Shown: in pieces, positions 1 to 38,007 of the stretch
Numbering within the stretch: the first letter of the stretch is position 1
Layout: each line of letters starts with the position of its first letter
NCBI GenBank assembly: GCA_964587045.1
Contig: CAZPJY010000005.1
Coordinates: 183 to 64,182, forward strand
Direction of reading: 5' to 3'
Origin: an uncultured Methanosarcinales archaeon
GTDB lineage: Archaea; Nanobdellota; Nanobdellia; Woesearchaeales; CAZPJY01
Length of the DNA stretch: 64,000 bases
Position numbers and translations under genes: made by a program
Notes under the pieces: model-generated
The model's database searches: none
Told to the model about the DNA's origin: nothing
The model's input: only the letters and a program-made list of their open reading frames with translations

Positions 1-1128
1 TGCCTGGGTAGGTCCGGAAGACATCCCGCAGAGCGGTCTTTCCTACAATCAAGAAATTCTCGCCGTCCATCGCATATGGGGTAAGCCACCTGGGAGCGAA
101 GTTGAAGCTGCTCAGGGGGCTGGATGGGTCGTGCTTGATTATGTCAATTTGGTCCTTGTCGGCTTCTGAGAGGTCTTTGTCAGAGAGGGTTATGATCCTA
201 TGGTCCTTCCTGTTCCAGTCGATTTCGATATCGCCCACACGGGAAATGTTATTCTTCACGAATTCCGCATGGTCCATCCCTTCTGTTATCGGCTCGTTGC
301 TGCGGACGATCAGGGAGAGGCGTCCGTTCCTCTCTGCTCCGATGAAATGGTTTTCCATAGAAGTCAGGCTGTCGATCCAGAAGAGCTGTTTTGCCTCCCT
401 TTTGACTATCTCCTCGATGCTTAGAGGAAGATCATCCAGTGATATTTGAGTTGTGCACTGGAGCTGGCCATCTCCCGATTCTATGTACAGGCCGTTGCCG
501 GATTTAATGCTCTCTGCCTTAAGCTTGCTGAAGGCGGTGGAGTTTCTCCTTATTCCTCTCGTCACCCAGGTCATGCGTGGCGCATCGAAAATGTGGAGGA
601 GCCGGTGGGAATTGTCCTTGAAGAGCTCGTAGCTCTTGGCCTGGAGCTCCACATCATCTGTTACATTGTTCATGGCCTGGATTTCCCTGATGCTGTAGCT
701 CTCTGCTATCATTATCAGCTGGGGCTTCAGGTCAGTACTGGGTACGACCTCTGCTTTCAGGATGCCGTCCCTCTTTTGGTCTTCGACGTATTTCCTGAAC
801 GATTCAGGATTGTAGCGCAACCATGAGCTGTAGGTAAGAATCTGGTCGAGTATCTGCTTGCTCTTGCGTTCTTTGTATTCGATTAGGACAGGCGAACCAT
901 CCTGGCCCAGTGCCGCGGTGTCCACGCGTCCGTCGATAGTCTTCTTGAGAACTGTTGAGAGGCTTATCTTCCCGAAGTCGATCCACATCTCGTTTCCTAC
1001 GAAATAACATCCGAATATGGTTTCCAGGTTGTCCGAGACCAGGGTCTGCAGACCTTTCTCTCCCTTACGGAAACGAACTTTTTCGATATAATCAGTTCCC
1101 TGCCCTGAGACCTTCAGCAGTTTCATTT
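1..1128 (-). CDS. PD-(D/E)xK (NucS/DUF91-like) nuclease-family protein, partial (C-terminus beyond left edge); absent from ORF track because it runs off the window
   Basis: Hand translation of minus strand from ATG (rc of cttcagcagtttcat ~1114-1128): MKLLKVSGQGTDYIEKV...IDGRVDTAALGQDGSPVLIEYKERKSKQILDQILTYSSWL = classic D...(I/V)E(Y)K restriction-endonuclease-fold motif; open to position 1; TATA-like catttataaatg ~30 nt upstream. Confidence 0.5.
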
Positions 1129-1199
1129 CGGGATGGAATAACTCCTTCTCATTTATAAATGTTTCTAAAATTTCTTACTGAGAAGTAGTAAAAATATCT

Positions 1200-1781
1200 T
1201 TACCGGTTTTCTTTCTCGTACTTGGCTGCTAGCATGCTCATCCTCTCCAAGTCGCTAAGAGGGATTTCATGTTCGCGGCCTAGGAATGAGGCCAGGTGGA
1301 ACTCGTAGCTCAGGCGGGCTAACTCCTCATCAGAATACATCTCCCTGTACTGCTTCTTCAGATTTGAGAGCAGGTCCATGATTTTGTATTCTTCCATACC
1401 CACTGGCCAGCCCACAAACGCCTTTTTGTTGCTGTTGCTGTAAAGGACTACGGGGTTTGCCGGCGCACGTTCCTTTCCCATGAATGTCTTCGCCAAGTCA
1501 TATATGTCAACATCTATGTTGATTATGCTCTCGACCAAGAGGTATTCCCCCAGCTTCCTTGATATTTTTGTCTGGGCGTTGAGCCAAGGCTTTGGCAAGC
1601 CGAAGCAGCGTTCGTCGATGGACCTGGCGATTGCGAGGCTCAGCACCAGGTATCTCTCACTCATCGTAGGCAGGACCATCTCCTGGAAGGTCTTCTTGAT
1701 GTGATTATCGATCTCTTTTGACTTGCTTTGTAGCTGCACCAAACTGCCTATCGTTAATTTCATAGACTTGGCTCCGAACAC
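1200..1781 (-). CDS. hypothetical protein, immediately upstream partner of the nuclease gene
   Basis: 193-aa ORF with balanced composition, same strand, 70 bp from nuclease start; no recognisable motifs. Confidence 0.45.
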   Translation of the reverse strand: MFGAKSMKLTIGSLVQLQSKSKEIDNHIKKTFQEMVLPTMSERYLVLSLAIARSIDERCFGLPKPWLNAQTKISRKLGEYLLVESIINIDVDIYDLAKTFMGKERAPANPVVLYSNSNKKAFVGWPVGMEEYKIMDLLSNLKKQYREMYSDEELARLSYEFHLASFLGREHEIPLSDLERMSMLAAKYEKENR

Positions 1782-1841
1782 TCTTTATTTAAAGCTTTTC
1801 CTGAAGAAAGGTTTTAATATTTCCAGTTTTACCGCTCCTCT

Positions 1842-2114
1842 ATGAATCCGGAAGATGTCAAGAAATTTTGCCTCGGAACAGGAATGGACACTGATACAGC
1901 TGGTGTGATTACATACATCGCGATGCAAGGCAGTTCGCCGTCGGCGTTATGCTTCAAGAGGATGCCGCTGACTGGCCGTCTACGTGCCTGGCTTGTGGGC
2001 AGGCTTGGGGACGAAACGCTCGAGGAGAACATTAAACGTCTGTACAAGGACTGGGAGTACCTGGGTAAGCACTTGGAAATATATAGGGGTCTGAAGTATT
2101 CTGGAGAGTTTTGA
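1842..2114 (+). CDS. hypothetical small protein
   Basis: 90-aa ORF with protein-like composition; competing antisense ORF 1829..2209 is R/S-rich and less plausible. Confidence 0.3.
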   Translation: MNPEDVKKFCLGTGMDTDTAGVITYIAMQGSSPSALCFKRMPLTGRLRAWLVGRLGDETLEENIKRLYKDWEYLGKHLEIYRGLKYSGEF

Positions 2115-2115
2115 G

Positions 2116-2409
2116 CTATTTGGTGAACTCGGGATTGCCGTAATCTCCTGAGTAGGTCCTGTAGTTGGGGAAAAAGACCTTCCTGGCATCTAGCGCTATG
2201 TAAGTCCATCCGTTCTGGCAGCCTTTAGGTATTACGCCTGAAAAGAACCTTACGTAACCCTTCTTGGTCCTGAGCAGGTTGGCACCGTCAGGTATTTGGA
2301 TTTCGTGCCAGTGGTTGAGTATTCTCTCCTTCCCTATGAACTGCAGCGTATCATCAAGGGCCATCTTTTTTCCTCCTCTGCAAAGCCAACCTGACGAGAA
2401 CTTTCGCAA
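2116..2409 (-). CDS. hypothetical protein (start may be the internal Met, MALDDTLQF)
   Basis: 97-aa ORF, W/H/C-containing globular-looking sequence. Confidence 0.35.
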   Translation of the reverse strand: MRKFSSGWLCRGGKKMALDDTLQFIGKERILNHWHEIQIPDGANLLRTKKGYVRFFSGVIPKGCQNGWTYIALDARKVFFPNYRTYSGDYGNPEFTK

Positions 2410-2547
2410 AGCCTGCAGCCGACCTCACAGCACGACGACTACCATGACAACGAGATTGTTCGCGGTAGCATCACCCATGGGTATGATGATATTCATGATT
2501 TTATTTATTCCTATTGACACAAATCGAGAATAACCGATAGTCGCCAA

Positions 2548-2958
2548 TCATGCAAGGTTGTCAGGTCCGAAGGTTTCGGTTATTACCTCGTAGAGCATCT
2601 TTTTCCTGTATTCGCCTCTGAGATTGGAGGCGAATAGCTCCACATCCCTCGTTTTGCTCGAGAACTCTATGATTGCTTGCAGGCAACCGCCGCAGGGGAA
2701 GGGTCTTTTCTCGTCGTCGGTCACCACTGCTACTGCAACTACCCTGCTGTCTCCGTGCTTTACCATGTCGTCGATGGCCATCCTCTCCGCATGCGTGGTG
2801 ACCTGCACAACTGTCTCGTTGTTTACGCCAGTATACAGGTTGCCCTCCGCGCTGAGGAGCGCCGCTCCTACCTTGTAGTTTGAGTAGGGCGCGTGAGCGT
2901 TATTTCTCACTTCCCTGGCCGCGTTGATCAGGGTCTTGATTGTCGATTCGTCCAGCAT
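2548..2958 (-). CDS. cdd: cytidine deaminase
   Basis: Zinc-ligand motifs HAERMAI (H[AC]E) and PCGGCLQ (PCxxC); start moved to MLDESTIKT by codon arithmetic (3231-273); TTTAAATA box ~25 nt upstream; N-terminal 91 aa of track ORF is non-protein-like. Confidence 0.85.
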   Translation of the reverse strand: MLDESTIKTLINAAREVRNNAHAPYSNYKVGAALLSAEGNLYTGVNNETVVQVTTHAERMAIDDMVKHGDSRVVAVAVVTDDEKRPFPCGGCLQAIIEFSSKTRDVELFASNLRGEYRKKMLYEVITETFGPDNLA

Positions 2959-2978
2959 GGCAAGGCTTCGTTTGAGGT

Positions 2979-2995
2979 TATATTTAAATATTAAC
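2979..2995. promoter_or_regulatory. bidirectional archaeal BRE/TATA element (ttatatttaaatattaa) between cdd and ORF 3022
   Basis: TTTAAATA ~25 nt upstream of cdd ATG (2958, minus) and ~32 nt upstream of ATG 3022 (plus). Confidence 0.4.
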
Positions 2996-3021
2996 ACCAA
3001 CTCGCCGCCCCGGGTGATTGA

Positions 3022-3354
3022 ATGGCTAAGATCAAACTGGATGATTTCGTTCCAAACAGCTTTGAAGAACTTAAAGCAGCACATAGGCTGCTCAACAAGT
3101 ACGCTATAATGCTGGGGGATATAGTTCAGGAGACCAATGACAACATGCATCACGATTTCCTCTCGGTCACAAATGGCGAAACCGAAAAAGTCGAGACGTA
3201 TCTGGAGCAGTACCGGCGGCATGTCGAGCAATACAAAAATAAGTCAGTGTCTTGCCTGTCCGACCTGCTGGTGGAGCTGGTGAGGGTCCAGCAGAGCGTT
3301 GTAAACGGCTTGCATTGCTATGAATACAAAGAAAAAATAAAAGAGAAAATCTAG
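3022..3354 (+). CDS. hypothetical protein
   Basis: 110-aa ORF with TATA box at -32; helical K/E-rich. Confidence 0.4.
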   Translation: MAKIKLDDFVPNSFEELKAAHRLLNKYAIMLGDIVQETNDNMHHDFLSVTNGETEKVETYLEQYRRHVEQYKNKSVSCLSDLLVELVRVQQSVVNGLHCYEYKEKIKEKI

Positions 3355-3695
3355 CCTTTCATTCCGTAGGAGAGCCTCTCTATCTCTTCGTTCTTGTACT
3401 TGTTCTTCAGGAGTCCGATCTCGTTTGCGGCCTCTGGATGGGCTGCAACATAGTCGTCCAACACCCAGGAGGCTGTGTAGGTGCCGCGTCTCTCATTTTC
3501 GATATTGGCGAAGTACGTTGAGTTCTTCGGCAGTTCTATTCCCTCGCGGACCATGCTTTCGATGGCCTGGTTGAGACTATCGAGGTTCTTTTTCTCCTTC
3601 CTTGCCTGTCGGTCTATCTTCCTCTTAGTGTCCCTTTGGTTTAGCCCCTTTTCCACAAGGCTTTCAAGTTCCCGTTTCCTTAGGTTTTCAGTCAT
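3351..3695 (-). CDS. hypothetical basic/charged protein
   Basis: 114-aa ORF, convergent with 3022..3354 and overlapping it by 4 nt. Confidence 0.4.
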   Translation of the reverse strand: MTENLRKRELESLVEKGLNQRDTKRKIDRQARKEKKNLDSLNQAIESMVREGIELPKNSTYFANIENERRGTYTASWVLDDYVAAHPEAANEIGLLKNKYKNEEIERLSYGMKG

Positions 3696-3788
3696 TTTCC
3701 ATCACCTGTGGATTAGGTGGCCAGGCATATATATGAATTATTGGGGTGATATTTCTCACCACATTAATATACTTTTTAGAAATGGTGA

Positions 3789-4289
3789 TTAGGCCTTGCG
3801 GATGAGCTCTGCATAGGTCAGAGGCTCGAGCTTGGCGTTGAGGCCGAGTTCTGATGCTACCAGATGGATGGTGTCTTCGTCGCCTTCTACCTCCACGAAG
3901 GTGCCCAGTCCCTTAACTTCGTCGAGGAAGACCTCTGCAGACCTGTACCTATAGACAGAGCGGTTCTTTTCGTACCTCAGGTGTTCGGTGAGGCCGAAGA
4001 GGTGAAGGATTTTTTGGGTATACTTAGGGACGCGGAACTCGATTTCGACCCTCTTGTGTATGTCTTCGCTCCTGTTCTTGCCCTTGAATGTAAACAGGCT
4101 CAGGGTCTTGTCCCCTTCGGATATGGTCCTGAGACGCACGAGGCGGTCGTTGTTATAGAAGTATTCGCCTTTGCTGTCAAAGATCCTGTTAAGCTCCTTA
4201 TAGGTTCCCAGGTGCTTTCCCTTGCCCGTGAGGATGGCTTTTGCCACCTTCTGAAGGTCGTCTACCCTGTATTTTGCCTCGACTTCCAT
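3789..4289 (-). CDS. CYTH-domain protein (CyaB/thiamine-triphosphatase-like triphosphate tunnel metalloenzyme)
   Basis: N-terminal MEVEAKYRV (ExExK), later FVEVEGD acidic strand motif typical of CYTH; 166 aa; TATA tgtataaaaagg ~22 nt upstream. Confidence 0.65.
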   Translation of the reverse strand: MEVEAKYRVDDLQKVAKAILTGKGKHLGTYKELNRIFDSKGEYFYNNDRLVRLRTISEGDKTLSLFTFKGKNRSEDIHKRVEIEFRVPKYTQKILHLFGLTEHLRYEKNRSVYRYRSAEVFLDEVKGLGTFVEVEGDEDTIHLVASELGLNAKLEPLTYAELIRKA

Positions 4290-4410
4290 CCTTGCAACGG
4301 AAACTTCAGTCCTTTTTATACATTTTCTCCATTAAATAACTACTTAATAGTAGTAAAAAAAGGAAAGATTTATATATGGGTAGAGGCTACCTGCAGTATG
4401 AGGTGATTCA

Positions 4411-4578
4411 ATGCAAGGATATACCAACCCCGGTTTAATTCAAGAAAAACCAGACACGGACAAGATTAAAAAGGTAATGGAAGAGGCAGAAGTGATTTAC
4501 CAGCGCTTTCTGGACCTCAAGAAAGATTATCAGCCCGAATTTCCTCAAGACAGGGAAGACGAGCATCTCTTCATATAG
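4411..4578 (+). CDS. small protein (55 aa), below the 60-aa cutoff of the ORF track
   Basis: ATG preceded by TATA gatttatatatg at ~-30 and GAGGTGA-like SD; followed 12 nt later by next gene. Confidence 0.3.
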   Translation: MQGYTNPGLIQEKPDTDKIKKVMEEAEVIYQRFLDLKKDYQPEFPQDREDEHLFI

Positions 4579-4589
4579 GGTGATAGATA

Positions 4590-5015
4590 ATGACGTGGAA
4601 AAAAATCATTCCATGGGCAGTGGCAGGATTGTCGGTGTTTGCCTTTTTAAAGGGTTGTGACAATGATAATAATGTTGCGGGATACATCAATTCACATGAA
4701 CCAGTGATCGTAACACAAGCAGACAGTCTGCTGCATAGAGTTAGTGATGCTTTAGGGGAACATAACTTCGCCCTATACTCTTTGAATAAACTTCTAGATG
4801 ATCCTGAGCGTTTCGATTCAACAGCCGAAGTGGTAACTAAGGAGCTGAAGAAATATTCGGATGTCACCAAGTCACAGGCGTATATTGAGGCCAAAGAAAA
4901 ATTCGACGATTTCGAAGACAGGGCCAAGAGTGAAAAGGGAACACCTTTGTACGTCTACGCTCTCGCGATTGTGGGACTAGTCGGAGCCGGCGTGATTAAT
5001 GAATTAACCAATTGA
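4590..5015 (+). CDS. membrane protein with N- and C-terminal hydrophobic segments
   Basis: KIIPWAVAGLSVFAFL at N-term and LYVYALAIVGLVGAGVI at C-term. Confidence 0.45.
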   Translation: MTWKKIIPWAVAGLSVFAFLKGCDNDNNVAGYINSHEPVIVTQADSLLHRVSDALGEHNFALYSLNKLLDDPERFDSTAEVVTKELKKYSDVTKSQAYIEAKEKFDDFEDRAKSEKGTPLYVYALAIVGLVGAGVINELTN

Positions 5016-5099
5016 TTTTTCATTCATTCTTCAACATATACAACACCATACCGAAATATTTTTAATAAAGCGTTTTTCTGACTTGTCTTTGGGGGTAAC

Positions 5100-5954
5100 T
5101 TGGTATTCACTTCAAAGATAGCAAAGGAAATCAACGACTTCGTCTACGTCAAGCCTCGGACCGTGCAGGAGATCGCGCTTCTCATCGGCAAGAACTGGCG
5201 CACTGCCAACTCCTATGTGGATAAGATAATCTCTGAGATGGGCACCCTTTCGGTTAGGACCTTTCGGGAAGGGACCCGCGGAGCGCTGAAAATCGTCTAC
5301 TGGAGCAACATCGAGAGGATACACTCGACAGCCTTCCAGGAGAAGCTGATGGGCAAGATCGAGGCAGGCAGGCGGAAGGAGGACTTCAGCCCTTTCGACA
5401 TCTACCAGTACGTCGACACGGGCAAGCGTAACGCCTTCTACGAGTACAGGAAGGACACCAAGCTCACCTCAGGCCAGAACCTCATCCCATTCCTCGAATC
5501 CACAGACAAGCAGCTGCTGGTCTTCTCAGGCAACCTCTCATGGCTCAACCTCACCGAAAAAGACGTTCCGCTGGTCAAGGTCGCCGAGGAGCTGGTGCGG
5601 AGGGGTGTTTCCATAAAGGTCGTCTCAAGGGTCGACATGGCCGGCATGGACAACGTGCAGACCCTCCTTGCCATGAATGAAATCGTCGGAAGGGAGCTCG
5701 TGGAGATCAGGCACGTCGAGCAGCCACTGCGCGGATTCGTGGTCGACACCCGCGAGGCGAGGTTCCGAGAGGAGAAGGCGACCAAGACCTACCGCAAGGG
5801 CGAATTGGCAGGGGACGTCGCCATCTTCTACGAGATATTCGACGAGGAATGGGTCGAGTGGCTCAGGAAGGTCTTCTTCAACATGTTCTCAACAGCCGTG
5901 CCTGCCCAGAAGAGGATATCAGACCTGAGGAGCATCACCGAGCTGGAGAAGTGA
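5100..5954 (+). CDS. winged-helix (TrmB-like N-terminus) domain protein; TTG start with GGGGGT SD
   Basis: N-terminal FVYVKPRTVQEIALLIGKNWRTANSYVDKI looks like a wHTH; 284 aa. Confidence 0.45.
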   Translation: MVFTSKIAKEINDFVYVKPRTVQEIALLIGKNWRTANSYVDKIISEMGTLSVRTFREGTRGALKIVYWSNIERIHSTAFQEKLMGKIEAGRRKEDFSPFDIYQYVDTGKRNAFYEYRKDTKLTSGQNLIPFLESTDKQLLVFSGNLSWLNLTEKDVPLVKVAEELVRRGVSIKVVSRVDMAGMDNVQTLLAMNEIVGRELVEIRHVEQPLRGFVVDTREARFREEKATKTYRKGELAGDVAIFYEIFDEEWVEWLRKVFFNMFSTAVPAQKRISDLRSITELEK

Positions 5955-6177: not shown

Positions 6178-6672
6178 TTATTTCTTTTTGACCTTTTCAT
6201 AGCCATAGCGTTGCAGTCGCTCCGAGTAAACCGCGAAGGGCTCAAGGCCCATCTCCATGCGCCTTCGTTCCAGATCTTCAGGGTCGTGGATCGCCCATGG
6301 CACGTACTGCCCTTCCACGTCGGTGCGGAACTGGGTGCCATAGAGCTGCGGCTGCCCCCTGTTCATCCTCACCCTGTCCTCCAGGAAGGCTATATGCAGC
6401 TTCCTCTGCCTGTTTCCCTTCTGCTCCTTCAGCAGCCTGAGGCATCTTTCCTGGAGCTCCGGGTCATGATCGGCGTGCTGTGCGATGAGCCAGGCGGCGA
6501 ATTCGGCATCCGAGCCGTACTCCTCAAGGCACGGCCAACCATGGTTGGATAGGATAATGGCAAGGTTCTCAGCGTTCTTTCTCGCCACCTCTCCGAAATG
6601 AGGCTTATTGACTGCTTCCTGGTCCTGCCTGCTCAGGAATAGGAGGACATCGCGGAGGCTGGGTCCTGCCAT
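6178..6672 (-). CDS. conserved hypothetical protein
   Basis: 164-aa ORF; WLIAQHADHDPELQ motif; plausible composition. Confidence 0.45.
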   Translation of the reverse strand: MAGPSLRDVLLFLSRQDQEAVNKPHFGEVARKNAENLAIILSNHGWPCLEEYGSDAEFAAWLIAQHADHDPELQERCLRLLKEQKGNRQRKLHIAFLEDRVRMNRGQPQLYGTQFRTDVEGQYVPWAIHDPEDLERRRMEMGLEPFAVYSERLQRYGYEKVKKK

Positions 6673-6702
6673 GATGAATGAAATGTCTAGAAAGAATAAA
6701 AA

Positions 6703-7611
6703 CTAATCGAATTCGACCACTGAGAGGGGATGGTCTGAGTGCCGGACCTCGGTTATCGATCCCCGGTTGAACTCAAACGCCCTGCCGCGGGGGTGCAGCC
6801 TCTTCGCCCCGTCGAACGACGCCCATCCTGTCTCGATCATGTAGCTCTGGACCCTGAGGACCTCGCCAGGCCTGATGATTCCGAACCTCACCTCAGGCTC
6901 GTAAGTCCCCATCCTCTTGGGTGATACCAGCCTGAACCTCAGATTTTCCTTGTCTTCCGAGCTGAAACGCGCCTCTTGTGGCAGGTTGTAGTTGTTGTTG
7001 TACCACCCTTCCTGTCCGTCATAGGTCGATACCAGGACGCCGCTTGCCCCCTGCCTCTTGGTCCACATGCTACCGTATTCGATCCTGTGCCTGAAGTAGC
7101 CTGTGGAGAGCATGTCCCCCAGGTAGAGGTCGTTGGTCGCGACGTCTGCCTTAGATCCGTTGCCCATCACCTTGCCCTCTATCCTGACTTTCTCGCTGGT
7201 CCTGTACTTGCCTGCGACGAAATCCTCGAAGCGCGGCAGGTAGTCGTCGAAGCTGAGCTTCATATGGCCGCCTTCGGAATCGGGGGACGCCCTGATCCCG
7301 AGGACAGGGAGCTTATCGTGGATAAAGCACGCAGTGCCGAAGTAGGTGCCGTCGCCTCCCACCACCACGACTGCGCTCCTGTCTTTGAAGTGCTCTTGGG
7401 TGAGGTTCTCTCTCAGAACCATCTCAAAAGGGACTTGGTTCTTTGATAGGACATCTTCGATTCCATCAAGGGTGGAATAATGCTTATCGTGGCATGCGAG
7501 CATGAAGTCGTAGTCCTCCTGGCTGGCACGGACTGCTTTTTCCACGTTGTACTTGATGCAGTCCTGGTAGTATTCCAGCTGCGATTTCTTAGTCACTATG
7601 AGGACGCTCAT
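6703..7611 (-). CDS. nadK: NAD+ kinase
   Basis: VVVVGGDGTYF (GGDG motif), NDLYLGDM; start moved to MSVLIVTKK (7683-72); overlaps upstream gene end. Confidence 0.85.
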   Translation of the reverse strand: MSVLIVTKKSQLEYYQDCIKYNVEKAVRASQEDYDFMLACHDKHYSTLDGIEDVLSKNQVPFEMVLRENLTQEHFKDRSAVVVVGGDGTYFGTACFIHDKLPVLGIRASPDSEGGHMKLSFDDYLPRFEDFVAGKYRTSEKVRIEGKVMGNGSKADVATNDLYLGDMLSTGYFRHRIEYGSMWTKRQGASGVLVSTYDGQEGWYNNNYNLPQEARFSSEDKENLRFRLVSPKRMGTYEPEVRFGIIRPGEVLRVQSYMIETGWASFDGAKRLHPRGRAFEFNRGSITEVRHSDHPLSVVEFD

Positions 7612-8548
7612 TCCTCCACCTCTCATAATCCTTGAGTATCCTTGGGTGGTCCACGAATGCGAACTCGTTGGGGTAGTCTTCAACCTTGAATACGCGTGAG
7701 TTCTTGGCGTCGTCTCCCCAACCGATCTCCTGCTCAGTCCTCCCGATGAAGGTGTGCGTGACGATGTGCCACCTCGGATCCCTTTTTGGGTCGTCGTAGT
7801 AGCCGAGGTAGTCTGTTATTTCGACGTCTACCTTGAGCTCCTCAGACATCTCCTTCACCGCATTCTCCTTGAGCGTTAGCCCGTAGTCGAGCATCCCGCC
7901 TGGGATGGCCCAGCCGTACGGCGAGTGTTTCCTCTCGATGAGGGCGATTCCCCGGAACTCGCCCCTGTCGTAGACCTCGACGATGCAGTCCGTTGCCATC
8001 CGGGGATGTTTCTTCTTCATGAGCATACCACCTCTCTTGTCAAGCATCTCAAGCGATATGAGCCTTTCCCTTGCTCCGATTTCATCGAGGTAAGCGATGA
8101 CCTTGGAGTCGAGCACGCCATCCAGGGGTTCGCAGTCGATTATCATCTTCCTGATCCTGGTCGCGGATACGCCAGGGATGGTAGGGAATCTTTCGATGCG
8201 CACGCCGAGCCTCGCGATCTCCTCGGCCTCTCTTTGATTGTTGGTGAAGTATACATCTGGCTTGAGCTGGCTCACGACCCGACTTGCCCAATACTGGATG
8301 TCATGCACATCCTCAACAGGCTGTATCTCGACGCTGTCGCCGAGCACAAGCCTTATCATCCTCTCCCTTTCAAGGTACGTGAAAGGGTCGGCTACCCATG
8401 GCTTTGAGGGATGCTTGTGCACGTGGTTGTACTGGGCGCTCCCTATGCCTATTACCAGGTCGTCGATTCCCCAGCTCCTGATATGCTTGATCACACCCTC
8501 ATGGTGTAGTCCGAACGGGTTGAACCTCCCCAGGTACGCTCCTCTCAC
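7589..8548 (-). CDS. bifunctional NMN adenylyltransferase (NadM-like, degenerate HxGH) fused to Nudix hydrolase (ADP-ribose pyrophosphatase-like)
   Basis: GRFNPFGLHHEG and VSATRIR (ISxTxxR) NMNAT motifs, then Nudix box GGMLDYGLTLKENAVKEMSEELKV. GTG start overlaps the nadM TGA (GTGA); the first ~88 aa of the track ORF are R-rich non-protein-like. Confidence 0.75.
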   Translation of the reverse strand: MRGAYLGRFNPFGLHHEGVIKHIRSWGIDDLVIGIGSAQYNHVHKHPSKPWVADPFTYLERERMIRLVLGDSVEIQPVEDVHDIQYWASRVVSQLKPDVYFTNNQREAEEIARLGVRIERFPTIPGVSATRIRKMIIDCEPLDGVLDSKVIAYLDEIGARERLISLEMLDKRGGMLMKKKHPRMATDCIVEVYDRGEFRGIALIERKHSPYGWAIPGGMLDYGLTLKENAVKEMSEELKVDVEITDYLGYYDDPKRDPRWHIVTHTFIGRTEQEIGWGDDAKNSRVFKVEDYPNEFAFVDHPRILKDYERWRNERPHSD

Positions 8549-9117
8549 AAGCCATCCCTCCGGGCCAGTTCCTTGAGCCTGTACTCTGCGTTGATGCTGT
8601 CCCATACTTTCAGGGTGCCTTCCGGCAGGTACTGGCGGTAGTCGCCTCCGCTTAGAGCAAGGTTCCTTATTTTCGTCCCGCTCATCAAGCGCTTCTCCTC
8701 GTCGATCCCTCTCACTTCGATATTGTCGTTGGAGGCCAGCATCCGCACGACAGTGTTGCCGGCGTATATGACGTGGAAGGGAGGCATGATGGCCTTCACG
8801 TAGGGGAACCATTTGGAGTAATCATGAACGTCCCATACGGGCAAAATCGCCACAGGCTTGACAATCCCTTCAATGCTGGATCTTATCATCATTTGCCTTT
8901 CCTCCAGGGTGAACGGGTTATGCAGCCATCCGGCCTCAGGGCTCCTGCGATTCAGGTCGTACTGCGCAGAGCCAATGCCTATTATTATCTCATCGATATC
9001 TGGCGAGCGGTCCATCAACTTAATCATCATGAGATGCCCCTTGTGGAAGGGCTGAAATCTGCCTATGAATAATCCGCGCCTGGCGTCTGGCCTGTAGTAG
9101 ACTTTCAATACGTCCAT
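8545..9117 (-). CDS. nadM: nicotinamide-nucleotide adenylyltransferase, archaeal type
   Basis: GRFQPFHKGHL and SGTKIR motifs. Confidence 0.85.
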   Translation of the reverse strand: MDVLKVYYRPDARRGLFIGRFQPFHKGHLMMIKLMDRSPDIDEIIIGIGSAQYDLNRRSPEAGWLHNPFTLEERQMMIRSSIEGIVKPVAILPVWDVHDYSKWFPYVKAIMPPFHVIYAGNTVVRMLASNDNIEVRGIDEEKRLMSGTKIRNLALSGGDYRQYLPEGTLKVWDSINAEYRLKELARRDGL

Positions 9118-9140
9118 CCTCCGCCGGAATTAGCGGCTTC

Positions 9141-10082
9141 TTATAAACCATTCGCTATCCTCAGGTCGTATTGCGTCGGGGCAAGTATGCGTTTAGGCTC
9201 TTCAAGTTTGCAGACAGGCGCCGGCTTTGACTTGAATTGCGCCCCTTCGACCATCCTGTAAATCCTTTCGATTAGGTCGAGCCTCACGCCTGTCGCCTGG
9301 AGCACCTCCTCCTGTGAAAAACCAAGAACGATACCGAGGAGTATCTTGTCTATCGTCTTGTAATCCATGCCCAGTTCGCCTTCGTCTGTCTGGCCTGCCC
9401 AAAGCTCAGCTGAAGGGGTGCGCTCGATGATCCTGCTGTCGACCTCCTGATAGGCGGCCAGATCCCAAACCTGGGTCTTGAACAGCCCGTCGATTCCCTC
9501 GTTGTCGACCCCGCCTGTCCCGTCTCCGGCTATCGTCGCATAACCGAGCATCCTTTCGGTAGCGTTGCTAGTTCCAAGAACCGCGTAACCTCTTAACCAA
9601 TTGTGGTCTCGTAGTCCTTTCATCCTCTGTCTTGCGTGAAGATTTCCTATCCGAACGAGATTTTTGTACGACTTATCATTTGGGTCAATGTTTAGCCATC
9701 TCATGTCTGCAGCGATGCACTTCTCAAAGAGATCAGCATCGAGTATCTCGTAAGAAATTTGGAGCTTTTTTGCAAGATTCTCTGCTAATACTATGCTGTC
9801 CTTAGTTGTAAAATACGATGGGAGCAGCATGCCATGCACATTCTCATTTCCAACTGCCTTTACCGCCAATGTGGCTACAAGCGCCGAATCTATCCCTCCA
9901 GACAAACCAATGGTGTATCCAATCGGTCCGGGTTTAACTGATGCAAGAGTTTTGTAGAAATGGGTGATTACCTTCGAGACCCTTGCCTTTTCATGGTTAT
10001 CCATCCTGAGCAAAGCTGCGGGGTCATTCATGTATAGCTTGGGTCTCATGCCACGTAAGTCAAAATTGGTAAGTCGGTCCAT
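9141..10082 (-). CDS. nadE: NH3-dependent NAD+ synthetase
   Basis: PP-loop GLSGGIDS; 313 aa. Confidence 0.9.
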   Translation of the reverse strand: MDRLTNFDLRGMRPKLYMNDPAALLRMDNHEKARVSKVITHFYKTLASVKPGPIGYTIGLSGGIDSALVATLAVKAVGNENVHGMLLPSYFTTKDSIVLAENLAKKLQISYEILDADLFEKCIAADMRWLNIDPNDKSYKNLVRIGNLHARQRMKGLRDHNWLRGYAVLGTSNATERMLGYATIAGDGTGGVDNEGIDGLFKTQVWDLAAYQEVDSRIIERTPSAELWAGQTDEGELGMDYKTIDKILLGIVLGFSQEEVLQATGVRLDLIERIYRMVEGAQFKSKPAPVCKLEEPKRILAPTQYDLRIANGL

Positions 10083-10741
10083 CAGAGCTTTCCCTCCAGC
10101 ACTTCCTCAGTCGTGACCAGCTTCACGCCGAGGCCTTTCCACTTGTCGTAGATATCTTGCCTGCTCTCTTCTGATATAGGCTTCATCGCGTCCGTTACGG
10201 CGTACACGTTGTAGCCTCGCTGAGCGAGTCCGGTGATGGCGAAGTCGTTGCAAACCTCAAGCGCCACGCCCATGACTATTATGTCCGTCAGCTCGAGGGC
10301 CTTCAGAACCTCCTCTGTGTGGGGGTTGCTGAATACGTCAAACTTTTGTTTCCTCATGTACACTTCGCCCTGGTGCTCCTTTAAGACGTCTGAGAGGCTG
10401 CCGTACACCTGCTTGCCTCCCTTTTCCATCTTGCCGTCCGTATCGATCCAAAGGGGGTCTTTTGGCCTGGTCTCGATGATCTTATCAGCCCCCCATGTTC
10501 CAGCGATGCAGTGCTCATTGTAGGTGGTCTTGTAGTCTGGCTCGTCTGATATTTCCTCATCGCCTAGGCTGTGCCAGTCCACGGAACCTGTTATCTGGAT
10601 GCCTTCCTTTCGCGCGTAGTTGAGGATCCTAGACAGTTTATCGTTGATCTCGCCAGCTCCCCGGATCGAAAGCTTGCCTTTCTCTTCCATGAAGTCGTTT
10701 TGCGTATCCACGTCCCAAATCGCGTATTTCATTTTATTCAC
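10082..10741 (-). CDS. pncA: nicotinamidase (isochorismatase family)
   Basis: IWDVDTQNDF, catalytic Cys in VMGVALEVCNDF; ATGA overlap with nadE. Confidence 0.85.
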   Translation of the reverse strand: MNKMKYAIWDVDTQNDFMEEKGKLSIRGAGEINDKLSRILNYARKEGIQITGSVDWHSLGDEEISDEPDYKTTYNEHCIAGTWGADKIIETRPKDPLWIDTDGKMEKGGKQVYGSLSDVLKEHQGEVYMRKQKFDVFSNPHTEEVLKALELTDIIVMGVALEVCNDFAITGLAQRGYNVYAVTDAMKPISEESRQDIYDKWKGLGVKLVTTEEVLEGKL

Positions 10742-10953
10742 CTCATCCTTGTTTGGATTATCTCATAACTTTGCTTGTTCAGTATCCGGGCGATCTCCTC
10801 GGTCATGTCGGACATGATCTCTGCGCTGACTCTCTCTTCCTTGTAGCGGACGATCACGCGGAGCGGCTCCTCCTCGACCCGGATGCTCTTGAGGGGGAAC
10901 CTCTTGTAGAGGCTTCGCATCTTCTCGATAACGTCCTGCTCGATCATCCTCAC
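10738..10953 (-). CDS. small hypothetical protein inside the NAD operon
   Basis: 71 aa; 4-nt overlaps with both pncB (upstream) and pncA (downstream). Confidence 0.45.
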   Translation of the reverse strand: MRMIEQDVIEKMRSLYKRFPLKSIRVEEEPLRVIVRYKEERVSAEIMSDMTEEIARILNKQSYEIIQTRMR

Positions 10954-12359
10954 CTCAATTCGGCGGCTAGTTTGTCTGTCAGGTCTGATAGGTTACTGCT
11001 GAGCCGCACGGCGTATTTCTCTGACTTGTGTATGTCCCTGTACACTGCTGGTATCTTCGCCCTCTCTTTTATGGAGTATTCTCGGATCTCACTGATGGAG
11101 GGGAAATCATAGATTATCTCTCCCTTCTCCATTATTGGTATAAGCAGGGGCTTCCCATCAGAGTTCTCATCCCAAAGCGTTATGGCGTCGCCTGCGTACA
11201 TGCCCTGTTCATCGAATCTCCTGTAAACTTGCTTCTTGGATGGGAGGGTCATCTTGGCCATCTCGCTTGAGAGTTTCATCTTTGGTATGACTTTGCTGCC
11301 CTCACGGCGTTCCACCTCTTTGTATACTCCGGGGAGGGCCGCAACGCCTCCTTCCTTAGTGAATGGGTTGTAGACTGCACCAGTTATAAGCCTAGTCCCA
11401 ACACCGAACCCATCTATGGGAGCTCCCTCTTCAAGTAGCCGGTCGATTGTGAACTCGTCCAGGTCGTTTGATGCGAAGACCTTGACATCAGTTAGGCCTG
11501 CTTCGTCCAGTATCTTCCTTACTTCCCTTGAGAGTTTGAGGAGATCGCCTGAGTCGAGCCTCACGCCTTTGAGCTGGTATCCTCTCTCAGCGAGCTCCTT
11601 ACCAACAATCGCTGCGTTCCTCGCACCCTGCACCGTGTCGAATGTGTCTATCAGCAGTATCGGGTTGTGCGGGAACACATTGGCGTAGTCGCGGAAGGCT
11701 GTAAGCTCATCAGGTCTGTCTTGGACGAACTTATGGGCCATGGTCCCGACATAAGGCAACCCGAATTTTTTTCCAGCGGCGACTAGGGAGGTGCCCACAG
11801 CTCCGCCGATGTACGAGGCGCGTGCTCCTAACATGGCGGCATCGCGGCCGTGGGCCCTCCTTGCACCGAAATCAAGAAGTGTTTTTCCTTTTACGGTCTC
11901 TGATATCCTCGCGGCTTTCGTGGCGATGAGGGTTTGGAAGTTCATCATGTTGAGCAGGTAGGTCTCAATCAGCTGGACGTCGATTGAAGGGCCGGATATG
12001 TTTATGATCGGCTCTCCAGGGAATACTGGCGTTCCCTCAGGGACAGCGTATATGTCACCCTTAAACTGGAAGTTGCGCAGGTAGCCTATGAAATCATCCG
12101 ACAAGTCGCCGTTTGACGTGTCCTGAAGCCACTTGATGTCCTCTTCTGAGAATTTGATGTTCTTGACGAAGCTCACGACCTGTTCGAGGCCTGTGCTCAC
12201 CATGTAAGAGCCTTGCGGAACCTTCCTGACGAAGTAGTTTTCCGTGATTTCGACATTGTTATCCAAAGCATGGTCGGCCATGCCCATGGTCAGCTCGTAG
12301 TAGTCCTCGAATAGCGCGAGCTCGCTTTCGGTTATCAGTCCTGAGTTCGGTGCGTTCAT
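10950..12359 (-). CDS. pncB: nicotinate phosphoribosyltransferase
   Basis: ALFEDYYELTM N-terminal motif, 469 aa; SD AAGGAGGA 6 nt before ATG. Confidence 0.9.
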   Translation of the reverse strand: MNAPNSGLITESELALFEDYYELTMGMADHALDNNVEITENYFVRKVPQGSYMVSTGLEQVVSFVKNIKFSEEDIKWLQDTSNGDLSDDFIGYLRNFQFKGDIYAVPEGTPVFPGEPIINISGPSIDVQLIETYLLNMMNFQTLIATKAARISETVKGKTLLDFGARRAHGRDAAMLGARASYIGGAVGTSLVAAGKKFGLPYVGTMAHKFVQDRPDELTAFRDYANVFPHNPILLIDTFDTVQGARNAAIVGKELAERGYQLKGVRLDSGDLLKLSREVRKILDEAGLTDVKVFASNDLDEFTIDRLLEEGAPIDGFGVGTRLITGAVYNPFTKEGGVAALPGVYKEVERREGSKVIPKMKLSSEMAKMTLPSKKQVYRRFDEQGMYAGDAITLWDENSDGKPLLIPIMEKGEIIYDFPSISEIREYSIKERAKIPAVYRDIHKSEKYAVRLSSNLSDLTDKLAAELR

Positions 12360-12448
12360 TTTGATGTCCTCCTTTCGAGTTTTTTGTTAAACTTTTCAAT
12401 AAAACCCCCATACGCGATGCCGTAAGGAGGCTCATCGTCGGATTTTTA

Positions 12449-12471
12449 GAAAGTGTTTTTTTAACACTTTC
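12449..12471. promoter_or_regulatory. perfect palindrome GAAAGTGTT-TTTTT-AACACTTTC (9-bp arms) upstream of pncB; candidate operator
   Basis: read directly; ~90-110 bp upstream of pncB ATG in a divergent intergenic region. Confidence 0.4.
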
Positions 12472-12632
12472 AACATATTGTGTAGTATACACTAACTAAT
12501 ATATAAATGTTGTGAATATTTGCTTCAATTTCGAACTGGAAGGCGTGGGGAGCAATTATTTTGCGTTCTGGCGGGTTCTGTTAGTCCCATTTGGCGAATA
12601 ATATATATAGTTGGGTTCCACCCCGCCAGCTG

Positions 12633-13673
12633 ATGGAGAAGCTGAAACCAGACATCCTGGCCCTCATAAGGGAGGCGATGGGGAGCAATCTCGACAAATC
12701 AAAGGAGGATTTTCCTTACCATCCCAACCCTCGGTACAGACCGGTCAGGTTCAGCGCAGACAATTTTTCCTTCCCAGAAAAAAGTCATGGGAGGACCATG
12801 CGCTCCTTCACCGACGGCGGCTCGGCAGACATCATCGTGGCGCCCAACTTCTGTGTCGGGATGGTCAGGACCGCATGCGTCGGCTTCCTGGACAGGCAGC
12901 GCGTTTCCAACACGAGGAGGGAGTACTACTACTTGACATCCCTGGTTAGCCCTGAGAAGATAAAGGCTGAGCTGTTCCCTGTCAGCGGCAAGGAGGAGCA
13001 GATAGCGCCGTTGGGGTTCGACACAAAAGAGCTCTTCGACGATGAGGTCGACCTCTCGCAGGTGACGCATACCATCAGGAAGATACTAGAGCTGAGGCTC
13101 GCTGTCGAGGCAATGGACACTCTTCCCGCAGGCTCGATCATGACCCTCGACGGCACGCTCGAGTGCAGGAACCGGGCAGAGGAACCGTTTTGGAAGGCTC
13201 TAAAGCAGAAGGCCCTGAAGAGAGGCATCCTGCTCACCGCGCTTGCCAAGACGTGCAGGCTCATCACGAAGAACGGCGACTCCCTGATAGGGAGGGTATC
13301 CTCAACAGCCCCTAAGGGGGAGTGGTTCTACCATCCTGTTTTCAAGATTGAATCCGAACAGCACCAGGCCGACATGTACATAGTCAAGCTGCACAGGAAC
13401 TCGGATTATGCCTTCAGGTTCGAGATATTCTCAGAGCAGCTCAATACAGTCGATCCTGGGAAGGTGATAGGCATGCTGACCCAGCATTCAGCAGACCCCG
13501 CTTTTGTGGGCTACCCGTACGGGCTTGTGGCCGTCGACCAGGTAGCGAGGATTTCCAACTCGGAGAAGAGCTATTTGACGACCAAGCTGATGGCATCAGC
13601 CGGTGGGGATTGGAAGCGTTTCAAGCCTTATACTTCTGCGCTCAATGCGCATGAGAAATTGGATAAGAAATAA
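12633..13673 (+). CDS. NurA-domain 5'-3' nuclease-like protein (stand-alone)
   Basis: TDGGSADIIV and IMTLDGTLE (DG[ST] motifs) plus C-terminal GYPYGLVAVDQVARIS, which matches the NurA C-terminal motif. Start moved to MEKLKPD because TATA ataatatatatag lies inside the track ORF (TTG start). Confidence 0.5.
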   Translation: MEKLKPDILALIREAMGSNLDKSKEDFPYHPNPRYRPVRFSADNFSFPEKSHGRTMRSFTDGGSADIIVAPNFCVGMVRTACVGFLDRQRVSNTRREYYYLTSLVSPEKIKAELFPVSGKEEQIAPLGFDTKELFDDEVDLSQVTHTIRKILELRLAVEAMDTLPAGSIMTLDGTLECRNRAEEPFWKALKQKALKRGILLTALAKTCRLITKNGDSLIGRVSSTAPKGEWFYHPVFKIESEQHQADMYIVKLHRNSDYAFRFEIFSEQLNTVDPGKVIGMLTQHSADPAFVGYPYGLVAVDQVARISNSEKSYLTTKLMASAGGDWKRFKPYTSALNAHEKLDKK

Positions 13674-37297: not shown

Positions 37298-37501
37298 ATG
37301 GACAAGCTCGACAGGATTGCATCTGTGATCCACAAGGAGTGGATCGAATGGAGCAGGGAGACCGCGCACCGCGAAAGGATTTCTGAGGCGACCTTGAGGC
37401 GGTGGAAGAGCAGGTGGATCCCTTTCGAGCATCTGCCTGACAAGGAGAAGGAACGCGACCGGATATGGGCGAGGCGCATCCTACAGCTGGTGAGAGAATG
37501 A
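37298..37501 (+). CDS. small hypothetical protein
   Basis: 67 aa; ATGA overlap with macro-domain gene; TATA ctatttatact upstream. Confidence 0.4.
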   Translation: MDKLDRIASVIHKEWIEWSRETAHRERISEATLRRWKSRWIPFEHLPDKEKERDRIWARRILQLVRE

Positions 37502-38007
37502 GGCTGAAAGTTCTGCATGGCAACATCGCCGAACAGGACACGGACGCGATAGTCAATGCCGCCAACCGCTCCCTCATGGGGGGCGGAGGGGTCGACGGGG
37601 CTGTCCACCGCGCCGCCGGTCCTGGGCTGCTCGAGGAGTGCGGCCGGATCCGCAAGACCAGATATCCCAAGGGCCTTCCCACAGGCAAGGCTGTCATCAC
37701 AGACGGTCACAGGCTCAAGGCCAGGTACGTGATACACACTGTCGGGCCGGTTTACTCCGGGGCGGAGGACCGCTCCCACCTGTTGAGGGACTGCTTTTGG
37801 AACTCCCTCGAGTTGGCTGAGGAGAACAAGCTCGGGTCGGTGTCGTTCCCGGCCATCTCCACAGGGGCATTCGGGTATCCCAAGGCAGAGGTCGCGGCGG
37901 TCATGAAGGAGGTCTTCTCATCCTTCCCCTTCAACTGCGTTAAGGAGGTCAGGGTGGTGCTCTTCTCAAGGGAGGACCAGGAGCTCTTCAAGGAGCTGCT
38001 CTCCTGA
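37498..38007 (+). CDS. Macro-domain protein (ADP-ribose/O-acetyl-ADP-ribose processing, MacroD/YmdB-like)
   Basis: DTDAIVNAANRSLMGGGGVDGAVHRAAG...VIHTVGP...ISTGAFGYP; start at MRLKVLHG by codon arithmetic. Confidence 0.85.
   Translation: MRLKVLHGNIAEQDTDAIVNAANRSLMGGGGVDGAVHRAAGPGLLEECGRIRKTRYPKGLPTGKAVITDGHRLKARYVIHTVGPVYSGAEDRSHLLRDCFWNSLELAEENKLGSVSFPAISTGAFGYPKAEVAAVMKEVFSSFPFNCVKEVRVVLFSREDQELFKELLS

Follow-up and report, generated by a model that had tools for sequence, protein, structure and literature searches.

Within a 64-kb stretch of DNA from an uncultured archaeon deposited as a Methanosarcinales member (contig CAZPJY010000005.1 of GenBank assembly GCA_964587045.1; the whole 64,000-nucleotide stretch is referred to here as the window), seven co-directional open reading frames (ORFs) occupy the minus strand between positions 12359 and 6703. 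All seven are real genes, and our best explanation of the locus, which taken as a whole we consider likely, is that they form one transcription unit for nicotinamide adenine dinucleotide (NAD) salvage by the Preiss-Handler route and for NADP formation in an uncultivated archaeon, probably of the DPANN type. The locus combines known modules, namely the Preiss-Handler enzymes with a NAD kinase, a fusion protein of a DPANN and Candidate Phyla Radiation (CPR) family, and a probable NrtR-type operator on an archaeal-style promoter, and it overturns no current knowledge. Its unusual feature is a duplicated nicotinamide mononucleotide adenylyltransferase (NMNAT) whose fused copy has lost the HxGH motif.

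A probable seven-gene route to NADP

The original prediction of seven genes on one strand that lead from nicotinate or nicotinamide to NADP is borne out by the ORFs and by their family assignments. In the pathway that we propose, PncA would deamidate nicotinamide, PncB would make nicotinate mononucleotide (NaMN), the canonical NadM would adenylylate NaMN to nicotinate adenine dinucleotide (NaAD), NadE would amidate NaAD to NAD, and a NADK2-like kinase would make NADP. Cofactors are generally assumed to reach DPANN archaea and CPR bacteria from their hosts, and this locus would supply every step from nicotinamide or nicotinate to NADP on its own.

Start codons were checked in three ways, by the position of a Shine-Dalgarno (SD) sequence, by homology and by exact match of the products to deposited gene calls. 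The operon opens with pncB (10950-12359, on the minus strand as are all seven genes; ATG, 469 aa), which is followed by the small gene orf69 (10738-10947; ATG 10947), pncA (10082-10732; ATG 10732, 216 aa), nadE (9141-10082; ATG, 313 aa), nadM (8545-9108; 187 aa from TTG 9108, which is the deposited call, or 190 aa from an alternative ATG at 9117), the gene for an NMNAT-like::Nudix fusion (7589-8548; GTG 8548, 319 aa) and a NADK2-like nadK (6703-7611; ATG 7611, 302 aa). A length of 71 aa had been given for the small ORF and would follow from an alternative GTG at 10953, but the supported ATG 10947 and the deposited calls yield 69 aa. Likewise, the 1-4 nt overlaps originally described between the genes are present at two of the six junctions, pncA/nadE (1 nt, TGATG) and nadM/fusion (4 nt, GTGA), and absent from the other four, all of which are still tight: 2-nt and 5-nt gaps separate pncB from orf69 and orf69 from pncA, respectively, nadE is followed by a gap of 32 nt to TTG 9108 or 23 nt to ATG 9117, and the fusion gene and nadK overlap by 23 nt. 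Each start has an SD sequence of the GGAGG/GAGGTGA type located within the preceding gene, and translation would be coupled through these embedded sites and the short overlaps. A consensus scan found no promoter- or terminator-like site inside the operon at any junction. Immediately 3' of the nadK stop codon lies a T-rich tract, TTTTTATTCTTTC (6690-6702, minus strand), a candidate archaeal oligo-T terminator that may possibly double as the TATA element of a downstream, possibly leaderless DUF6624 gene (ATG 6672, about 25 nt away; tract and gene fall within 6178-6702).

The assignments of the salvage enzymes rest on family models and catalytic motifs. PncB scores 497 bits against NCBIfam NF006695 (cut-off 469) and 459 against TIGR01513 (cut-off 297) and contains the Pfam NAPRTase_N/C domains. 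PncA has the isochorismatase fold (Pfam Isochorismatase), and its top PDB matches are the nicotinamidases 29iv, 1im5/1ilw, 2h0r and 3o90. It scores below the NCBIfam equivalog cut-off; aligned to 29iv and 1ilw/1im5, it keeps the Asp/Lys/Cys triad and the DWH...HC metal motif, the aligned segments being VDxQNDF, DWH...EHC, the lysine of the KxxF segment, and GVALEVC. NadE is a single-domain, NH3-type enzyme without a glutaminase domain (Pfam NAD_synthase, 3e-56; TIGR00552, 171.9 bits against a cut-off of 63.65) in which the SGGIDS motif is present. The closest relatives of pncB in a metagenome scan, at 56-60% identity, sit on contigs that lack the other six operon genes (L083-L089), and the PncB of an Aenigmatarchaeota cluster of the DPANN type (L004) is only 29% identical to that of the window. 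The origin of pncB probably differs from that of the other six genes, with pncB having been recruited into the operon. The 69-aa product of orf69 is a called gene in both NCBI and JGI data, with the SD sequence GAGGTGA upstream, and a single-sequence AlphaFold2 (AF2) model gives it an alpha-beta-beta-alpha-beta fold at a predicted local distance difference test (pLDDT) score of 85. It has no Pfam or NCBIfam family match, its fold has no significant counterpart in the PDB, and none of the fetched loci holds a homologue; it appears to be an orphan specific to this operon.

A tandem NMNAT pair and its Nudix fusion

Two consecutive genes of the operon each encode an NMNAT module. As judged from its sequence, the free nadM is a canonical archaeal-type adenylyltransferase for nicotinamide mononucleotide (NMN) and NaMN: its product scores 134.8 bits against NF002243 (cut-off 127), matches the M. 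jannaschii NMNAT (MJ0541, 1f9a) at 1.6e-30 and shares all catalytic motifs with that enzyme and its M. thermautotrophicus counterpart (1ej2), including GRFQPFHKGH and SGTKIR. In the second copy, in agreement with the original prediction of a degenerate HxGH (GLHHEG) beside a retained ISxTxxR, the motif GRFQPFHxGH is replaced by GRFNPFGLHHEG (GRFNPFGLHH; H13G and G15H), whereas VSATRIR is kept at residues 127-133, with R133 at a position on which at least 90% of the fusion's family agree.

That these are two separate genes follows from how they align. NadM matches 1f9a to its very end and then reaches a stop codon, and the product from GTG 8548 begins at residue 1 of the same protein, so both domains are complete. 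The first 88 residues of the 407-aa ORF found mechanically for the fusion come from reading across nadM in a different frame; homology, the deposited NCBI protein, which is identical to the 319-aa product, and a JGI contig all uphold the earlier proposal that these residues are nonsense and that translation starts at the GTG over the nadM stop codon. An in-frame ATG giving a cleaner N-terminus was looked for, and none was found. The JGI contig (L178; 965 nt, metagenome 3300031552, same population) is 100% identical over nadE-nadM and the first 23 fusion codons, including the GTGA junction and the GLHH codons, which makes a frameshift or an assembly artefact very unlikely. We thus give next to no credence to the idea that nadM and the fusion are one gene broken by a sequencing or assembly frameshift, or that the fusion is a decaying pseudogene. 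The reach of the mechanical ORF across 88 codons of nadM and the degraded catalytic motifs of the fusion are what such an origin would offer in its favor, but there are two full domains rather than two halves, and the fusion retains a 319-codon open frame, a confident two-domain model and 39 of 52 conserved columns.

Word-indexed protein searches returned almost nothing beyond the queries themselves, whereas for the fusion exhaustive searching with HMMER across 1.84 billion representatives recovered about 35 full-length homologues of about 300 aa, at 30-38% identity and with a best E-value of 5.6e-43. These occur in metagenome-assembled genomes (MAGs) of Nanoarchaeota and Aenigmatarchaeota, on a contig that also encodes the archaeal ribosomal proteins L1/L10/P1, and on a CPR-like contig in which TGA encodes glycine (L168). 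Their neighbors in the sampled clusters are nearly always pncA, pncB, nadE or nadK, the gene orders being pncA-fusion-nadK-pncB in L004, pncA-X-nadE-fusion-nrtR in L166, pncB'-pncA-fusion in L169, fusion-IUNH-nadK...nrtR in L172, pncA-nadK-fusion in L173 and pncB-nadM'-fusion-prs in L168. No description of this NMNAT-Nudix family of about 300 aa was found in the papers searched. The locus suggests that a widespread, uncharacterized family serves as the usual NMNAT of these small genomes. On L168 (Logan SRR14493015 contig, 1-5493) the in-frame stops are all TGA and fall at conserved glycine positions, such as LFI[TGA]RFQP, from which we conclude that the contig uses code 25 (Gracilibacteria/Absconditabacteria-like); its stored protein, P0085, was translated with TGA as tryptophan.

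The original comparison with bacterial NadM-Nudix proteins captured the two-domain, ADP-ribose-pyrophosphatase-type architecture correctly but not the distance of the relationship. The bacterial enzymes (Synechocystis slr0787 and the Francisella protein; 2qjo, 2qjt, 2r5w; PRK05379) have the same domain order, an archaeal-type NMNAT followed by a COG1051-type Nudix domain with an RDPR motif, are the best whole-chain structural match of the window fusion, and are likewise encoded beside NAD salvage genes, that of Synechocystis being under NrtR control (PMC2330246). In contrast, sequence identity is only about 25% (tblastn), the fusion is about 30 residues shorter, and it scores 20-39 bits against the NCBIfam models of the bacterial proteins, whose cut-offs are 350-450 (the best is NF003786, 38.8 against 397). 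Moreover, HxGH is not conserved in the window protein, a separate canonical NadM is encoded immediately upstream of it, and its Nudix box is also perturbed. Its Nudix half matches Aquifex 2yyh at 1e-29 compared to about 1e-3 for the Synechocystis/Francisella NadM-Nudix proteins (2qjo). We therefore regard the fusion as a NadM-Nudix in architecture that, by sequence, belongs to a separate, unnamed DPANN/CPR family.

With the members of that family (for example P0007, P0009, P0011, L002 and L004) the window protein shares full-length homology, the linker and domain limits, and a neighborhood of pncA, pncB, nadE and a NADK2-like gene. It is nonetheless among the three most divergent at conserved columns, deviating at 13 of the 52 that are conserved in at least 80% of the family in a 34-sequence alignment, including H13G, G15H, E224L and R232K, although R8, H16, D80, N104, R133, E233, E236 and E237 are kept. 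Only it and P0025, two of the 34 aligned sequences, lack a histidine of HxGH, and among the sampled members only it is preceded by a NadM with intact catalytic motifs.

As read from the sequences, this arrangement is most simply explained if the NMNAT module was duplicated in tandem in this lineage and the fused copy then lost its catalytic motif. A comparison of 81 NMNAT domains, drawn from the fusions and from free NadMs of many archaea, shows an 8-residue insertion behind GSAQY in just three: those of NadM and the fusion in the window, and that of the fusion P0011. It is because this rare insertion is common to the adjacent NadM and fusion that we favor duplication. The insertion also sets the window NadM apart from other archaeal NMNATs. 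In a neighbor-joining tree, the nearest neighbors of the window NadM are the fusion N-domains of P0011 and L004 rather than free NadMs, and the P0011 cluster lacks a free nadM, the fusion gene coming directly after nadE. Weighing against this history, the tree is poorly resolved and was not bootstrapped, which leaves the insertion as the main evidence. Under this scenario, the NMNAT module of the DPANN/CPR fusion, which is normally the sole NMNAT of such clusters, would have been duplicated here with the free copy keeping catalysis, and the duplication is suggested to have freed the other copy to lose it.

We consider that the NMNAT module of the fused copy has probably lost adenylyltransferase activity, since the first histidine and the glycine of HxGH are gone and since, in the related flavin mononucleotide (FMN) adenylyltransferase, replacement of either HxGH histidine abolishes activity (PMC3509593). 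The Nudix half keeps the three catalytic, metal-binding glutamates (E233, E236 and E237) in its box, G-x5-L...KEMSEELKV, and may, probably, still hydrolyze ADP-ribose; such activity would serve both recycling and removal of an inducer. Two observations count against this division of roles. His15 of GLHH might spatially replace the lost His13, in which case the NMNAT domain may keep some activity, and the Nudix box deviates from GX5EX7REUXEEXGU in having lost the first glutamate (G218-x5-L224), in having lysine for arginine (K232-E233) and in having lysine for glycine at 239. A perturbed Nudix signature accompanies loss of hydrolase activity in NrtR proteins (PMC2330246).

If His15 of the shifted GLHH still places a histidine at the ATP alpha-phosphate, both NMNAT copies could be active and the fusion a bifunctional NMNAT/ADP-ribose pyrophosphatase of the usual kind, like those of Synechocystis and Francisella, the two enzymes sharing labor between NaMN and NMN, for example, or differing in affinity. 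We think this unlikely, yet it has points in its favor. The gene is free of stops and frameshifts and translationally coupled, the second histidine, Arg8, the NMN-site residues and SxTxxR are retained, and AF2, given the family alignment, yields a confident model (pLDDT 91.8 overall and about 97 for the greater part of an intact N-domain, with a disordered linker at 172-179). In a Foldseek search with this model, the bifunctional enzymes 2qjt/2qjo rank first over both domains, ahead of 2yyh (Nudix, TM-score 0.93) and 1f9a (NMNAT, TM-score 0.86). Set against these points, the first histidine is kept by 32 of the 33 other family members and the glycine by 31 of 33, the related adenylyltransferase is dead after loss of either histidine, the fusion N-domain is the longest branch among the 81 NMNAT domains, and a canonical-motif NadM directly upstream is found only here among the sampled clusters. 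A further possibility, to which we assign a rather low probability, is that the fusion has become a double pseudoenzyme, a dead NMNAT joined to a weakened Nudix domain that would still bind NMN or NAD and ADP-ribose and serve the neighboring NadM as a sensor or regulatory partner, for instance in mixed hexamers. This would couple NAD synthesis to ADP-ribose levels post-translationally and would mean that the pairing of a catalytic with an HxGH-degenerate NMNAT in tandem arose at least twice, given that L168 carries a second such pair in which it is the free copy that is degenerate (GRFQPAHYGT, second histidine lost). We continue to prefer a probably inactive fused NMNAT beside a Nudix domain that may still work.

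NrtR-type boxes at the putative operon promoter

The region upstream of pncB contains a putative archaeal promoter and two palindromic sites. A TATA-box-like element, TTTATATA, is read from the sequence at 12500-12507 on the minus strand and would direct transcription from a start site predicted near 12476. The perfect palindrome with 9-bp arms that had been described upstream of the operon is present at 12449-12471 as GAAAGTGTT-N5-AACACTTTC, and it is unique in the window even when three mismatches are allowed (0.01 expected). Read as an 8-N7-8 site, GAAAGTGT-N7-ACACTTTC, the same palindrome (box B) contains AGTGT-N7-ACACT (AAAGTGT-N7-ACACTTT). With at most one mismatch this motif occurs at exactly two places in the window, box B and 12477-12493, their centers being 25 bp apart, against a background of 0.011 sites per kb in 1.87 Mb of other fetched loci; at two mismatches there is no enrichment in the window (14 sites observed and 17 expected). 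The second site, box A (TTAGTGT-ATACTAC-ACAATAT, 12475-12495), departs from the motif at one position and starts 4 nt after the TATA box. NrtR operators are described as 21-bp palindromes with a GT-N7-AC core, and ADP-ribose as the anti-repressor (PMC2330246), and a mycobacterial NrtR site has the same 8-N7-8 geometry (PMC6800001). Most likely, then, the palindrome is the second box (B) in an NrtR-type operator made up of two, and its original interpretation as the operator of an NAD-responsive regulator has gained comparative support.

This support comes from the recurrence of the motif ahead of further NAD operons and beside nrtR genes, among them that of a Methanosarcinales MAG. In that MAG (L031; CAYLMH010000050.1, 4071-8964), an nrtR gene (Pfam NUDIX and NrtR_WHD) is divergent from an operon of nadV-like, Nudix and CinA-like genes, and the intergenic region holds three TTAGTGT-N7-ACA(C/A)T boxes, one of them directly after the TATA element with a TTTATATA-N4-TTAGTGT spacing identical to that of the window; by its sequence this is a textbook NrtR regulon in an archaeon. 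In L174, two perfect boxes coincide with the promoter of an operon that includes nrtR, one box directly follows the TATA box of the L166 operon that ends in an nrtR homologue (8e-34), and in L172 a site with two mismatches comes after the TATA element of nrtR. Three boxes fall within 110 bp upstream of pncB'-pncA-fusion in L169, where 0.07 would be expected per contig, and single boxes are found just upstream of pncB in L144 and L108. The left half of box A is identical to boxes in L031, L169 and L174, and the consensus of 14 sites is WTAGTGT-N7-ACACTAW with TGT/ACA invariant.

In our proposed mechanism, a regulator of the NrtR family (Nudix plus winged helix) encoded outside the window would bind the two WTAGTGT-N7-ACACTAW boxes directly after the TATA element and repress the operon, and ADP-ribose released by NAD consumption would lift this repression by analogy with bacterial NrtR. 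The arrangement resembles the regulon described by Rodionov et al. in 2008 (PMC2330246), in which GT-N7-AC palindromic boxes, among them tandem ones as in the window, precede operons of the pncA/pncB/nadE/nadM type, and the identical motif adjoins genuine nrtR genes in other contigs. It differs in that the NrtR regulon is presented as bacterial (PMC2330246, PMC10311068), whereas the window boxes follow an archaeal-type TATA box; archaeal nrtR genes are present in the L031 MAG and in L172, but the cognate regulator is not in the window. The NrtR/ADP-ribose logic described so far for bacteria is thus suggested to operate on archaeal promoters through a recognizable box. Several points temper this proposal. 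No nrtR gene (Nudix and winged helix) lies within the 64-kb window, which leaves the regulator a hypothesis as far as this genome is concerned; the window palindrome and L169 were already in view when the motif was fixed, such that only L031, L174, L144 and L108 are independent tests; and a weaker TATA-like element, TTTTATTG, lies nearer the ATG and, if it is the real promoter, would place the boxes upstream of it.

The palindrome might instead act at the level of RNA, as a 5' hairpin with a downstream pairing to the SD sequence that controls mRNA stability or pncB translation in the manner of a riboswitch or thermometer, or as a terminator. If transcription starts near 12476, the pncB 5' leader (12360-12448, minus strand) would contain a stable hairpin and the SD sequence GGAGG at 12372-12368, and the 9-bp hairpin of the palindrome itself would form if the start lay upstream of 12471. 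The 136-nt leader folds better than all of 200 shuffled versions (z = -3.4), and a CCUCC in it (12430-12426) can pair with either GGGGG (12410-12406) or the SD sequence (inverted repeat I3), both of which would suit such control. These features notwithstanding, we consider a role in RNA quite improbable. No Rfam family matches anywhere in the window, and none, NAD riboswitches included, matches the leader even at E<=10; the stem is not followed by a T-run, nor does any gene end at this place; and some boxes lie upstream of the likely transcription start. The pncB-based metagenome scan brought up no close homologue of the leader. Across loci, what is conserved is the half-sites and the N7 spacing, whereas the spacer sequence changes with no compensating pairs; conserved half-sites around a free spacer are the signature of a dimeric DNA-binding protein, as expected of a protein operator.

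Other candidates in the promoter region and nearby were set aside. The direct repeat at 12378-12399 is weak and departs from the box motif. A 284-aa protein with a helix-turn-helix appearance (5100-5954) was compared with the TrmB-family regulator beside the Aenigmatarchaeota cluster, but it does not match that protein and has no PDB relative. The gene divergent from the operon (12633-13673) was likewise rejected as a regulator; it has no Pfam or NCBIfam match and looks NurA-like by eye. The pncA-fusion-nadK-pncB operon of L004, for its part, has a divergent TrmB-family regulator, and its promoter (7243-7345; TTTATAT..TAGTGATAACTACA..GTTGAAG) resembles window positions 12475-12510 (TTTATATA..TAGTGTATACTACA..GTTGAAAG). 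That promoter has TAGTG-N3-ACTAC in common with box A, yet AGTGT-N7-ACACT is absent from it, and we take the resemblance as unexplained or due to chance.

The NADK2-like kinase and neighboring genes

The last gene of the operon, originally called nadK, encodes a protein with the GGDGT motif that is indeed NAD-kinase-like, although it resembles NADK2 more closely than the classical NAD kinases. Judged by the NAD kinase families PF01513/PF20143, it scores 21 bits (Pfam NAD_kinase), below the gathering threshold of 25.5, and its best PDB match is human NADK2 at 3.6e-11, as against 1.7e-3 or weaker for classical NAD kinases. A profile of five sequences (the window protein, its syntenic L004 homologue and three metagenomic relatives) widens this difference, matching NADK2 at 5.5e-30 and the best classical NAD kinase at 1.1e-11. 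NADK2-like homologues also occur next to the fusion in L004 (8894-9799), L172 (2649-3518) and L173 (554-1459). The group shares with human mitochondrial NADK2 (7r4j/7n29) an N-terminal segment and G(I/V)NxDPxxSEG after GGDG; it differs in being prokaryotic, in a length of about 300 aa without the NADK2 insertions, and in an identity of about 25-28% among its members. For the eukaryotic mitochondrial NADK clade, a published phylogeny recovered no prokaryotic sister, and its provenance is reported as unknown (PMC6675116). We offer as a lead rather than a result that this prokaryotic kinase group may be closer to mitochondrial NADK2 than to classical NAD kinases.

Elsewhere, the window encodes glycolytic and nucleotide-salvage enzymes together with many orphan proteins, and no rRNA or tRNA is found in its 64 kb. 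An Ogg-type N-glycosylase/DNA lyase scores above the NF002305 cut-off, and TATA-like elements lie about 26 nt before the starts at 12633 and 6672, as expected of leaderless archaeal mRNAs. Indirect support for an archaeal origin is provided by this spacing and the Ogg-type lyase, together with the archaeal-type NMNAT and the occurrence of the closest fusion relatives in DPANN MAGs and on the contig with archaeal ribosomal genes. The divergent neighbor of the operon (12591-13673, plus strand) is called from ATG 12633 (346 aa) with TATATATAT 24-32 nt upstream, so that its mRNA is probably leaderless; the NurA-like features seen by eye are DGS...DGTL motifs. A Macro-domain protein (37465-38007, plus strand) scores 214 bits against the O-acetyl-ADP-ribose deacetylase model NF001664 (cut-off 200) and adds another ADP-ribose-handling gene to the window; no NrtR box precedes it. 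Finally, the minus strand at 55836-57947 encodes a 703-aa fusion of a lysine-2,3-aminomutase-type radical SAM domain (KamA/AblA-like) and a D-Ala-D-Ala-ligase-type ATP-grasp domain, which may be a beta-amino-acid ligating enzyme.

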